This document shows, piece after piece, positions 23,742-27,347 of a DNA stretch of 27,347 nt. Numbering within the stretch: position 1 is the first letter of the stretch; each line of letters begins with the position of its first letter. The DNA comes from Candidatus Thorarchaeota archaeon (lineage in GTDB: Archaea > Asgardarchaeota > Thorarchaeia > Thorarchaeales > Thorarchaeaceae). The position numbers and the translations under genes are program-made. The notes beneath the pieces were generated by a model. The model ran no database searches and was not told the DNA's origin. It saw only the letters and a list, made by a program, of their open reading frames with translations. The stretch spans positions 2,129,770 through 2,157,116 of the forward strand of contig CP070761.1 of the NCBI GenBank assembly GCA_020348985.1, read 5' to 3'.

Positions 23742-23934
23742 CCAAACAAGTGGGACGTCATGCCGTAGCATAACCTTTTTCCGACGGAGTTGACTCTCTC
23801 CAGCAGAGGCGACCGGCGCGAGCGAAAGACCTTAATGACGAGAGAACTTCCCCAACTCCTTCATAGAGGATAGAGCGAGCCAGTTCACTATCGGCACTCT
23901 GCTCATGACATATTGGAACGGAGAAAGAAAAGTA

Positions 23935-25749
23935 ATGCGAGTATATCTGGATGCGAACTTCTGGATCAGTGGCTTTTCAGAGCGACCAAAAGATGTACAG
24001 CTCATCAAAGAAGCAGCAGACCAGATTGGCAAAGAACTCTGGGTAACCCGTCAGGTGTTTCACGAGCTGCGGTGGTACCTCCGACGCGAGGTCGAGGGCA
24101 TCATCCAGATCGATGAGACCCTTATGAAGGACATCAAGGCTTTCATGGAGAGTATCAAGAAACCCGAGAGTGCTCTGCCTCAAGCCAACGATATGTCATT
24201 GATTCTGGCAGCCATTCGTGCAAAACGGTCTAAGATTGTGACCAGCGATCTAAAGCTCCTAAATACCATTGAAGACCTACAGTTGGAGATTGAAGGCGTC
24301 GTAGGATCTGCCTTCGCTCTTGAGCTGATAGAATCTGTTGATGACGAGGAGCTCAAGAAGAAACTAGTCGCAGTCAGAGAAAGGATGTATTCTGAAGAGG
24401 TACGCTATAGCATTTCCAGAAGAGAATCCTATGACCCTGTGACAAGGATTCGAATAATTGAAGAACACGCAATGCAGGTACTTCGTTCTGTAAAGAGACC
24501 CGCTGAGACTCTTGACAAAAAGCTCGCTCGTGGACAACCACTGTTTGTCCTTGATTTCTTGGAAGACATCAAGGCTGGACTTCCGACAATGCTCGAAGAC
24601 TTCAAGGATGGCAAGTATGAAACTCTGGCGATGGAAATCGAGGCTGTTCAGAATGAGATTGAACGACTCCTAGTTGTATCAACGCTCACGGAAGACAGCG
24701 ACACCCACGAGAAGCTAGTCACTCATGCTTCCGACCTAGAGCTATTCCTCTACTACCTGGAGATGCTGTGCCATCTGTACCGTGGTACGAGAGAGGGTAT
24801 TGAAGATGCCATGGACCTGAGTGAGGAAGCCATAAGGTTACTGATGTTCTCAGGTGTCACAAACGACGAGCTCAAGGCGTCAGTCTTCTTCGTGAGATAC
24901 ATTCTGGCTCTTGTTCGTGAAGATTTTGAAGAGATTGATTATACCTACAGCTTGTATGATGGTATGCTGACCCGGTCGGGACTGGACTCCATGAAACAGA
25001 CTTCAGAGGGCCTCTATGTCACAATGCAGATTCTCAGGGAAGTCCTAGGAGGATTCTCTCTTTCCAAGGACAAGTTGCAGTACCCCGCAGTAACCATCTC
25101 GATGTTGAATGATGTTGCAAAGTATATGATCCTGTTTGATGACATCAATAATGCTTGGCAACTGGCAGTAACTGCATACAAGATAGGCGTTGCCTACGGC
25201 AGTGAACAAGGGGCGCTGTCTTCATTCCTGATGCTTTACAAAGTATCCTCTTCGTCGCAGGATCGCTTCAAAGACCGTTTGGAGAAGATAGCAGAGAATG
25301 CACTCAAGTTCTTTGTGAAGAATGATTGGGATACTACAGCTGTGACTCCGATTCTTCACGAGATACAGGGAAACATACCTCCTGTTGAAGACATCCCGGT
25401 GGACCAATCTCTGGAAGCTTCTGATCTGCCAGAGCCAATAACTGGGTGGATGGACGTTCTTACCCTCCAAAGCATCGAGGACAAGGATACTCTTGTCGTT
25501 AGGAATGACAAGCTTCAAGTCCGTGTGGGTATAGACGTAAGTGGGCACTCCGAGCTGAAGACTCTCAAGACAGGGCACAAGATTGCCTTAACTAGAGGGG
25601 AATTCACTCTTGAACACGCATCCCCGGATGTTGTCTCAAACTTCGCTGTCGCACTTCTCGTGAAACCCAGCGAAGGAGCAGAGATATCATACGAGGGCGA
25701 GTATGGGTTCTCGTGCCACCAAGTGGCAGAACCCGAAGCAGAAGTATAG
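23935..25749 (+). CDS. PIN-domain protein with a long alpha-helical middle region and a beta-rich C-terminal domain
   Basis: VYLDANF, VFHEL, NDMSLI, IVTSD match the PIN acidic tetrad pattern. I chose ATG 23935 as the start; the ORF is open to ATG 23905. Confidence 0.78.
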   Translation: MRVYLDANFWISGFSERPKDVQLIKEAADQIGKELWVTRQVFHELRWYLRREVEGIIQIDETLMKDIKAFMESIKKPESALPQANDMSLILAAIRAKRSKIVTSDLKLLNTIEDLQLEIEGVVGSAFALELIESVDDEELKKKLVAVRERMYSEEVRYSISRRESYDPVTRIRIIEEHAMQVLRSVKRPAETLDKKLARGQPLFVLDFLEDIKAGLPTMLEDFKDGKYETLAMEIEAVQNEIERLLVVSTLTEDSDTHEKLVTHASDLELFLYYLEMLCHLYRGTREGIEDAMDLSEEAIRLLMFSGVTNDELKASVFFVRYILALVREDFEEIDYTYSLYDGMLTRSGLDSMKQTSEGLYVTMQILREVLGGFSLSKDKLQYPAVTISMLNDVAKYMILFDDINNAWQLAVTAYKIGVAYGSEQGALSSFLMLYKVSSSSQDRFKDRLEKIAENALKFFVKNDWDTTAVTPILHEIQGNIPPVEDIPVDQSLEASDLPEPITGWMDVLTLQSIEDKDTLVVRNDKLQVRVGIDVSGHSELKTLKTGHKIALTRGEFTLEHASPDVVSNFAVALLVKPSEGAEISYEGEYGFSCHQVAEPEAEV

Positions 25750-25775
25750 AAGATACAAACTGGAAGTGAAGATAA

Positions 25776-26192
25776 GTGGATCCAACCATATGGGCGATTA
25801 TTGGCCTAAGCATTGGAGCTCTTGCATTCCTCAATTACCTCCTTAATCACGCTCCAGGGTCTGACCCTGAAGACTTCCAATTGGGTCCCGCGGAACTTGG
25901 TGTCTCCTGCGACTGCTTTCTAATTCCCATGGTTCTAGGCGGCATCGCAGTCCTAGGTCTTTCTATATCATCAGGAGCATTCGACTCGAGAGAAGAGCTC
26001 TACATTGTCGGGATAGTAGCGTTCTCAATAATCACATTGGCTGGCTATATAGGCAGAAGACGGAGGTATCGGGAGTGGCGCGAGTTACGTAGAATTTTCG
26101 AGCGAGCAGTACCGACCTCAACAATCCATCGTCCTGTGGACAATCCAGTTGACATACAATACGAGTTTGATGATGAGGAAGAGGACTACTAG
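25776..26192 (+). CDS. Small 3-TM hypothetical membrane protein with basic juxtamembrane stretch and acidic tail
   Basis: Three hydrophobic segments, RRRRYR, FDDEEEDY tail. It lies 26 nt after the PIN gene on the same strand. Confidence 0.7.
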   Translation: MDPTIWAIIGLSIGALAFLNYLLNHAPGSDPEDFQLGPAELGVSCDCFLIPMVLGGIAVLGLSISSGAFDSREELYIVGIVAFSIITLAGYIGRRRRYREWRELRRIFERAVPTSTIHRPVDNPVDIQYEFDDEEEDY

Positions 26193-26551
26193 TCAGGATG
26201 CTCCACCTTGTCGTCATCGATATTGGGGAACTTGATAGCAATCACTCTTACATCATGTTCCTCAGGTGCCTCGAACCAGTGAGGTTCACCGGGTTCGACG
26301 AGGACAACATCACCCTCTTCCAATTGCAGCACCTCGCTCCCAACACCCATGACAGTGGTGTCAATCGCAACGAAGACTTCCTCGAGGATTTCATGTGAGT
26401 GCGGGCTTGTTATCATGCCTCCAGGGATTTTGACGTGTATGAACATTCCATTCTCGGTGCTTTCTCTGAATGCCACTTCTGCTACGTATCTCACTCCATA
26501 TCCTAGTCTTCCTCTGAGCTCAACATCAGAAGCCTTGTAGTGTCTGACCAT
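26189..26551 (-). CDS. Cupin domain protein
   Basis: PHSHEILEEVF (H-x-H-x3-E) and GDVVLVEPGEPHWF cupin motifs. Confidence 0.88.
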   Translation of the reverse strand: MVRHYKASDVELRGRLGYGVRYVAEVAFRESTENGMFIHVKIPGGMITSPHSHEILEEVFVAIDTTVMGVGSEVLQLEEGDVVLVEPGEPHWFEAPEEHDVRVIAIKFPNIDDDKVEHPD

Positions 26552-26655
26552 TGTGAATCACTTCTTCGTTTGCGAAGACCCTCAATAAGATTGCCGAAAT
26601 CGATTCTGAGAGAGAACGGTACATGACCGATAATGTATAATCCGTATGCTGTAAC

Positions 26656-27347
26656 ATGGAATCTGTGATTCAATCCAGTCAAGAACAGAAAAAGCAGCGC
26701 TGCGTCAGGAAAGTGATTATTCTAGGACAGAACAGTGCGCTCTTGGCTGGATATCTGAGAAGGGCCTCTTCGGACTGTGTCTCTTTTCAACTCTATTCCA
26801 CACTGGGAGTGGGCATTGGGGTCTCAAGAGTAGATATCGAAGACAATCTTGAGATAGCCCTTCAGCTTTGGAGCTTGCCTAACGAACAACGCAGGTTCGA
26901 CTTCACTCAGGGATTTGCAAAGGGGCACAGCGGCGCAATAATCGTTGTTGAGGAGAATGAGCTCGAGCATGTACCGAGTTTGCTGACACATCTCAATGAG
27001 GCAACCGAAGACAAAGTGATGTTTGCTGTGGTTGGCTCTATCAGGGCAGCAGAGAGGCTTGCTCAGAATCTACAAGTCACTTACAAGAAGAACATCGAGG
27101 TCGTATCCATGCCCGATGTGCTCAGTTCTATGCCTTGCCTAGTGAAGGCGATGTACTCGAAGGACACTGAGAATCCGAAGCTCCCATTCATTGTAAGTAT
27201 CCCAGAGGAACAGTGCCACGAGTTTCATCCTCAACCAGGCTCATCAATGATGGATCCGCCCACACGAGATGAGATAAGAGAAATCAAGAGTCTTGTCAGA
27301 GATTGGAATGTTGAGGTAATTCAAGACACAGTCATTATCAACATGCA
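26656..27347 (+). CDS. Partial ORF (runs off the window): Rab/Ras-like small-GTPase fold with degenerate G motifs
   Basis: My translation gives 230 stop-free codons from ATG 26656: MESVIQSSQEQKKQRCVRKVIILGQNSALLAGYLRRASSDCVSFQLYSTLGVGIGVSRVDIEDNLEIALQLWSLPNEQRRFDFTQGFAKGHSGAIIVVEE... There is an in-frame TAA at 26638 upstream. Confidence 0.75.
   Translation, partial: MESVIQSSQEQKKQRCVRKVIILGQNSALLAGYLRRASSDCVSFQLYSTLGVGIGVSRVDIEDNLEIALQLWSLPNEQRRFDFTQGFAKGHSGAIIVVEENELEHVPSLLTHLNEATEDKVMFAVVGSIRAAERLAQNLQVTYKKNIEVVSMPDVLSSMPCLVKAMYSKDTENPKLPFIVSIPEEQCHEFHPQPGSSMMDPPTRDEIREIKSLVRDWNVEVIQDTVIINM

Follow-up and report, generated by a model that had tools for sequence, protein, structure and literature searches.

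Can a protein with the shape of a Rab GTPase be kept by an archaeon when the residues that bind the nucleotide are gone? The question is raised by a gene at the end of a 27,347 nucleotide stretch of DNA from a Candidatus Thorarchaeota archaeon (GenBank assembly GCA_020348985.1, contig CP070761.1; G000:C1:2129770-2157116), which we call the window. Among the eukaryote-like proteins of the Asgard archaea, small GTPases hold the most prominent place, and they have so far been discussed as working switches. The original prediction, made from the nucleotide sequence, had proposed that this gene encodes a Rab-like pseudo-GTPase with a C-terminal extension, which does not depend on nucleotides and keeps the surface that faces the effectors. 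The gene is real and under selection, and it belongs to a single-copy family of Thorarchaeota with a C-terminal domain that has five cysteines (the five-Cys domain). We consider it rather probable that the product is indeed a Rab-shaped pseudo-GTPase, acting as a scaffold with a fixed face.

A Rab-like fold with degenerate motifs

The open reading frame (ORF) starts with ATG and is free of stops for 230 codons, up to the end of the window, as predicted. Taken alone, the translated fragment stays below the gathering cut-offs of Pfam, with 22.5 bits for Roc (PF08477, cut-off 27, profile positions 1-115 of 119) and 12.7 bits for Ras (PF00071, cut-off 21.6). A profile made of the fragment and ten homologues (A1) matched PDB chains with E values of 4.9e-10 to 3e-7; its best 60 matches are all Rabs, among them Rab3, Rab11, Ypt1/Rab1, Sec4, Rab2, Ypt7 and Rab35. 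All the motifs on which the prediction was built are present, and HMMER aligns each of them with Rab3 as claimed: KVIILG pairs with KLLIIG (beta1), GQNSALLA with GNSSVGKT (G1), YSTLGVG with VSTVGID, so that the switch I threonine is retained, LQLWSLPNEQR with LQIWDTAGLERY (G3), FAKGHSGAII with YYRGAMGFIL, and VGSIRA with VGNKCD (G4).

The AlphaFold2 (AF2) model of the window protein has a predicted local distance difference test score (pLDDT) of 78 and a predicted template modelling score (pTM) of 0.73. It shows a six-stranded sheet and five helices in G-domain topology, that is, the fold of the small G domains of the Ras superfamily. A Foldseek search with this model gave only Rabs as top matches (E ~1e-8 to 1e-7, probability 1.0, template modelling score by target 0.6-0.67), which agrees with the small-GTPase fold that had been proposed. 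The top VIA rows for the same model are nucleotide-free Rabs bound to their guanine nucleotide exchange factors (GEFs), namely Ypt7/Mon1-Ccz1, Rab23/Fuzzy-Inturned and Rab8/Rabin8, and we take this ranking of the model as a hint. Putative equivalents of the RabF1-F5 motifs can be recognised (LGVGIGV, LQLW, FAKGH, plus ERFxGIT in relatives). When we call the domain Rab-like, the label refers to best matches; the Ras and Roc scores are below their cut-offs, and the tree described below compares the domain with Asgard GTPases.

The positions that bind the nucleotide are a different matter. The window protein does not have the G1, G3, G4 and G5 motifs of a functional small GTPase, the SAK of G5 being absent altogether, while the threonine of G2 is there. 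Aligned with canonical Asgard GTPases, the family has the G1 consensus G-x-[DN]-x-x-L-[QLM]-[AT]-G and the G3 consensus [ST]-[LI]-P-x, and nothing recognisable at G4 or G5. In and just before the G3 position, W72 and P75 show little or no variation. The 11 closest members all have Thr49 of switch I; in the wider family its place can be taken by serine or by residues without a hydroxyl group. In both AF2 models alpha1 starts 3 residues past beta1, compared to ~6 residues in a canonical P-loop, and the shortened loop of these models fits a collapsed phosphate-binding loop.

To which extent is the loss shared? An exhaustive search with a profile, made against 1.84 billion representatives (clusters at 50% identity), returned 766 matches with E <= 1e-3. 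Below 1e-30 there are 38 of them, of which 29 are full length (over 340 aa) and the others shorter or fragmentary. Orthologues with intact G motifs were looked for among the 36 best-matching database proteins (P0002-P0037) and we found none: all 36 are without GxxxxGK[ST], without DxxG[QEHTS] in the G domain and without NKxD in the G domain. The stray patterns that occur in these proteins (one NKxD, three of DxxG type) all lie off the G3 and G4 positions. As a control we used the 29 genes of the same genome that are positive for Pfam Ras; the 21 that were extracted all keep G1 and G4, and 20 of the 21 keep G3.

Purifying selection and copy number

P0002 (359 aa, 71% identical), a syntenic orthologue, is the nearest homologue of full length. 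Over 227 aligned codons, the identities at the three codon positions are 81%, 87% and 46%, and the ratio of nonsynonymous to synonymous substitution rates (dN/dS) is 0.078 (NG86), 0.143 (LWL85) or 0.114 (YN00), with dS being saturated at 1.3-2.4. Since dN/dS is 0.08-0.14, the gene is under purifying selection and is not decaying, a point on which the prediction could have failed. A G-domain fold and a loss of motifs common to orthologues under purifying selection, two of the traits that mark a pseudo-GTPase, are both found here.

We calculated the conservation per segment from 33 full-length database members and the window fragment. It is high (0.5-0.72) in beta1, the remodelled P-loop with alpha1, switch I, beta2-beta3, the G3 position, FAKGH and beta4, and low (0.25-0.43) in alpha3, alpha4, beta6, the G5 loop and alpha5, that is, in the half that binds guanine. 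It is by the switch/interswitch face that Rabs touch their effectors, GEFs and GTPase-activating proteins (GAPs). The pattern is the one expected if base recognition is dispensable and this face is still in use, and it fits the suggestion that the effector-facing surface has been kept. Strong conservation (0.85-0.97) is also seen at G24, L29 and G32 of the replaced P-loop; these residues could pack the former nucleotide pocket or, less likely, form a new ligand site.

We ran the family profile against 301 sampled genomes of the phylum; of the 76 that belong to the window's own GTDB family, 45 have one copy each, and the few double matches are genes split across contigs. Two other GTDB families have distant matches only, and some well-assembled genera of the window's own GTDB family gave no match in this sample. 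In the strict sense, the family is single-copy and found only in the Thorarchaeota family among the genomes sampled. At NCBI the homologues carry the name "hypothetical protein", from Candidatus Thorarchaeota or Promethearchaeota.

The C-terminal five-Cys domain

Orthologues are 359-377 aa long: as predicted, the G domain is not the end of the frame, and an extension of ~190 aa comes after it. The full-length order is G domain, linker, a domain of ~105 aa, a variable stretch and two conserved terminal helices (LLEAxxRRLxxGRLS...). In the model, residues 194-200 of the linker have a pLDDT below 50. For the window copy, the assembly lacks everything past the contig end, which includes the Cys cluster, GW loop and helical tail. 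Full-length orthologues have no prenylation motif with a C-terminal cysteine (one, for example, ends in ...WLVRNEE), with the exception of P0003, which ends in ...DPCS.

We defined the five-Cys domain in an alignment of 30 diverse sequences (A4). It consists of a helix and four strands, then C-x2-C-x3-6-C-x5-11-C-I, G-W-[SA]-N, LLxL[AS]KIxA, LPxHVxxQ and then the last C. Three of the five cysteines are invariant and two nearly so, and they probably form a Zn or iron-sulphur (Fe-S) site. The Cys cluster with the GW turn may resemble WhiB-like Fe-S domains. The downstream domain that the prediction wanted identified could be delimited but not named: we saw no match in Pfam, NCBIfam or the PDB sequences (the latter with two profiles). 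An ESM-Atlas feature search with the C-terminal domain gave sub-threshold, unnamed bacterial clusters only, and the lists from fold searches with the full-length model were filled by matches to the G domain.

The domain occurs in 104 of the 301 sampled Asgard genomes, with one or two copies each, mostly in ORFs of ~350 aa. In the members checked it lies C-terminal to a Ras-like domain, and this Ras-like domain is degenerate in most. It is also found as a stand-alone protein (P0125, P0126, P0095), ahead of a winged helix of the ArsR/MarR type (P0104), and N-terminal to a TFIIB cyclin repeat (P0119, P0128), where it replaces the usual Zn ribbon and B-reader region. P0119, P0128 and P0104 may represent an Asgard-specific class of transcription-factor paralogues. 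The fusions to winged-helix and TFIIB-cyclin modules suggest a role in regulation or as an adaptor, and not a catalytic one.

The family helical tail was also seen elsewhere: P0117 (1400 aa) has four matches to it (profile positions 335-368) and, in other parts, sub-threshold matches to the Topo-V helix-hairpin-helix. It may be that the tail is a helical motif which can occur in repeats.

Distant two-domain relatives

The architecture of a Ras-like domain followed by a five-Cys domain is shared with more distant relatives (P0045-P0069), which match the profile over both domains with E values of 1e-30 to 1e-18. Unlike the Thorarchaeota family, they score above the Pfam cut-offs for Ras or Roc, lack the Thorarchaeota-specific helical tail and lie in different gene neighbourhoods. 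Many of their Ras-like domains retain L-K-[TS] and W-D, and one protein from Helarchaeota (P0059, MHA1301062.1), named "Rab family GTPase" by NCBI, keeps GAVGTGKT.

In a quick maximum-likelihood tree of the G domains, the Thorarchaeota family forms one clade with a support of 100 in the Shimodaira-Hasegawa-like approximate likelihood ratio test (SH-aLRT) and a long stem (1.59). On one side of the tree are the canonical GTPases (SH-aLRT 92), and the Helarchaeota-type group is nearest to this side. The tree is compatible with a single origin of the architecture followed by a stepwise loss of motifs; long branches blur the order of events.

The locus: contig end, start codon and neighbours

The coordinates of the features are collected in Table 1.

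Table 1. Features of the pseudo-GTPase gene and its 5' flank, in window positions
Feature	Position	Strand	Basis or remark
Partial coding sequence, 230 codons from the start; full product expected at ~360 aa	26656..27345	+	frame cut by the contig end
Rab-like G-domain fold, residues 14-167	26695..27156	+	
Degenerate G1/P-loop GQNSALLA against GxxxxGK[ST]; Lys to Leu, Ser/Thr to Ala	26725..26748	+	Rab3 alignment and family alignment
Switch I/G2 equivalent YSTLG, Thr49 kept	26794..26808	+	pairs with STVGI of Rab3
Degenerate G3 SLPN against DxxG; preceding LQLW (RabF2-like, beta3) conserved	26872..26883	+	alignments
FAKGH, residues 87-91, equivalent of Rab YYRGA at the end of switch II	26914..26928	+	mean conservation 0.72; G90 invariant
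Degenerate G4 GSIRA against [NT]KxD	27034..27048	+	alignments; family conservation 0.40
Linker, residues 168-203, with conserved LP (176-177), Cys187 and Pro192	27157..27264	+	invariant columns
Start of the five-Cys domain: first helix and first strands	27265..27345	+	alignment of full-length orthologues; models for secondary structure
Divergent intergenic region between the cupin gene (26189-26551, minus) and the pseudo-GTPase gene	26552..26655	.	reading of the sequence

The genome record is a metagenome-assembled genome (MAG) in which 131 runs of exactly 100 N join 132 contigs. The window is one whole contig, flanked by such spacers at G000:C1 2129670-2129769 and 2157117-2157216. Because the contigs are joined in this way, genes at the ends of the window are truncated by the assembly, and the sequence beyond the Ns is unrelated DNA. 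The pseudo-GTPase gene is cut by the contig end with no mutation involved; this is an effect of the assembly, since the 100-N joint follows directly after the window. Retrieving the full ORF, as had been recommended, did not succeed for this copy: neither its missing 3' part nor the SLOG gene expected downstream has a match elsewhere in its own assembly, which is 86% complete.

Nor was the gene entirely unannotated, as had been stated, for the protein collection has a gene call (P0001, 211 aa) that begins at a GTG inside the frame. Because the conserved Arg15 and beta1 (residues 14-23 in the model) precede that GTG, the likelier start is the ATG at 26656. For the 71%-identical orthologue (locus L002) the called start, MRSVRKV, is preceded in frame, upstream of 8001 of L002, by VIQSSQEQKK, which is identical to residues 4-13 of the window protein (within window 26656-26712). 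The start of this orthologue is probably mis-called, or else a non-ATG start is used. In the intergenic region there is an A/T-rich, TATA-like stretch (~26630-26641), roughly 20 nt 5' of the ATG, which may be an archaeal promoter as far as the sequence goes; a sigma-70 promoter scan is not applicable here, the host being an archaeon.

In Thorarchaeota the locus has a common order: a large PIN-like protein (604-614 aa), a 138-aa protein, a cupin on the minus strand, the pseudo-GTPase and a SLOG cluster-4 protein, followed by a metallophosphoesterase, DUF362, UbiA, PHP, an LPG-synthase-like protein and a class I aminoacyl-tRNA synthetase. The upstream block at window 23905-26551, which is syntenic across Thorarchaeota, consists of the PIN-like protein, here 614 aa long and with a weak match to PIN_12 at its N-terminus (E 1e-4), the 138-aa protein, for which there is no family match, and the divergent cupin (Cupin_2, E 9e-9). 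We also considered a link to the large PIN protein outside Thorarchaeota and rejected it; the 595-aa neighbour of P0045 is unrelated.

The SLOG cluster-4 gene (PF18306, 163 bits) lies at 9106-9609 of L002, and at equivalent positions in L004-L006 and L008-L019. It is directly downstream, co-directional and a few tens of nucleotides away in 17 of the 17 orthologous loci where tblastn detected it. Across loci the SLOG proteins are 66-77% identical and the pseudo-GTPases 30-36%, hence the latter evolve much faster than their neighbour. The synteny is conserved over a range of 30-70% identity of the pseudo-GTPase. A predicted complex of the pseudo-GTPase with the SLOG product had a score under the mark and is uninformative either way. 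A search of the genome contigs for related loci gave 2 loci only.

How should the protein be interpreted?

By alignments and models, the first 165 residues have a small-GTPase fold in which all five nucleotide-binding motifs are replaced: the lysine of the P-loop by Leu or Gln and its Ser/Thr by Ala or Thr, DxxG by S-L-P-x, with NKxD and SAK gone. It is this replacement of all five motifs that leads us to read the protein as a pseudo-GTPase, in all likelihood unable to bind guanine nucleotides or to switch. Its use would be to offer a fixed face of switch I, interswitch and switch II for protein-protein contacts. The conserved linker joins the G domain to the five-Cys domain, which is followed by a short helical tail, and the role of the whole would be that of a regulator or adaptor rather than a catalyst. 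The analysis shows the fold, the loss of motifs throughout the family, purifying selection, the conservation pattern, the order of domains and the distribution among genomes; the absence of nucleotide binding, the binding of a metal by the Cys domain and the function as a scaffold or regulator are what we infer from these.

Several observations speak against such a reading. Thr49 is kept in the close orthologues; the distant two-domain relatives keep L-K-[TS] and W-D, and the one from Helarchaeota even the full GxxxxGKT. Potentially, binding may have been lost gradually, and that the end point has been reached in the Thorarchaeota family is assumed. The remodelled P-loop, being conserved, could still hold a phosphate-bearing or another ligand. 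Furthermore, the nucleotide-free Rabs lead the ordinary Rab structures by only ~1 Z, so that these are near ties, and the AF2 models were built on 11 sequences only (pLDDT 74-78).

Since Asgard small GTPases are generally Rab-like, there could also be a problem with the word Rab: the domain may be a generic, fast-evolving derivative of the Ras superfamily (Roc, Ras or MglA-like) that has no specific kinship with Rabs. Roc does score higher than Ras in Pfam (both below cut-off), Rho, Arf, FeoB and EF-type G domains come within ~2 Z in a search of 48,000 chains, and the stem of the family is long and lies outside the canonical Asgard clade. On the other hand, the best 60 sequence matches in the PDB are Rabs without exception, the equivalents of the Rab-family motifs have been kept (LGVGIGV, LQLW, ERFxGIT, FxKGH), and the nearest two-domain relative that has a P-loop is a Rab family GTPase by its NCBI name. 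We hold this alternative to be unlikely.

Similarly improbable, in our estimate, is a non-canonical NTPase or ligand-binding G domain, in which relocated residues would bind ATP or another phosphorylated ligand and switching would be retained. The G1 lysine, the Asp and Gly of G3, the NKxD of G4 and the SAK of G5 are jointly lost in every member, the base-binding half is the least conserved, and the P-loop is shortened to 3 residues in the models; all this is hard to reconcile with such an activity, even if the replaced P-loop is conserved (at G24, L29 and G32), the switch I threonine is kept in the 11 closest members and distant relatives have L-K-[TS] or a full P-loop. There are known pseudoenzymes whose catalytic residues have migrated (review PMC10211241).

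Finally, that the gene is a pseudogene in decay or that assembly or gene calling produced an artefact, as the truncated frame and an incomplete assembly with 131 contig joints might suggest, has next to no probability left and is refuted by the position of the truncation exactly at a 100-N joint, the full-length syntenic orthologue, the dN/dS values and the intact single-copy genes in 45 of 76 genomes of the GTDB family.

Relation to known systems

The closest known systems to the pseudo-GTPase are the eukaryotic Rabs (Rab3, Rab11, Ypt1/Rab1, Sec4/Rab8, Ypt7/Rab7; PDB 4rkf, 5ldd_C, 4lhx). Unlike these, the Thorarchaeota family has lost the five G motifs, has no prenylation cysteine, carries the ~190-aa five-Cys extension and falls below the Pfam Ras cut-off. 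With Thor-Rab and the other canonical Asgard Rab-like GTPases it shares the phylum, the fold and the Rab-like signature motifs, but it branches off as a clade of its own with a long stem, and the checked paralogues have kept their motifs in the proportions given above.

Pseudo-GTPases of eukaryotes reportedly include CENP-M, the pG domains of p190RhoGAP and the Rnd and RhoH classes, in the classification of Stiegler and Boggon. Our family is like them in having a G-domain fold under selection with degenerate G motifs and a presumed role as a constitutive interaction module (review PMC10211241); unlike them, it is archaeal, single-copy and fused to a new Cys-rich domain, and the likeness is one of fold, motif state and presumed role.

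The protein class had been described as little known in archaea, which is only partly true. Asgard Rab-like GTPases are well described: canonical ones from Thorarchaeota have been characterised structurally, and Thor-Rab, with its normal motifs, binds GDP and GTP-gamma-S (PMC10933270); 94 small-GTPase asCOGs have been catalogued (bioRxiv 10.1101/2020.10.19.343400). Of the pseudo-GTPase form, in archaea in general or in Asgard archaea, we found no specific description in the searchable literature.

What, then, does the gene tell us about its hosts? It means that Asgard lineages evolved a Rab-shaped module which we read as dead, and kept it under strong selection. To our knowledge, this evolutionary route has until now been documented mainly in eukaryotes. 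The analysis also defines a new Cys-rich domain, present in about one third of the sampled Asgard genomes and without a known structure or family, whose combination with TFIIB and winged-helix modules speaks for a role in regulation. With much reserve, one can think of an undescribed Asgard signalling family of two domains, in which a Ras/Rab-like domain progressively loses nucleotide binding (the full P-loop is still present in the Helarchaeota member, L-K-T in others and nothing in Thorarchaeota) and is coupled to a five-Cys domain, which might sense the redox state through Fe-S or Zn and is used with TFIIB-cyclin and winged-helix transcription modules as well. If this were true, the two-domain family would be a direct link between a small-GTPase module and the control of transcription, and one that predates the eukaryotes.
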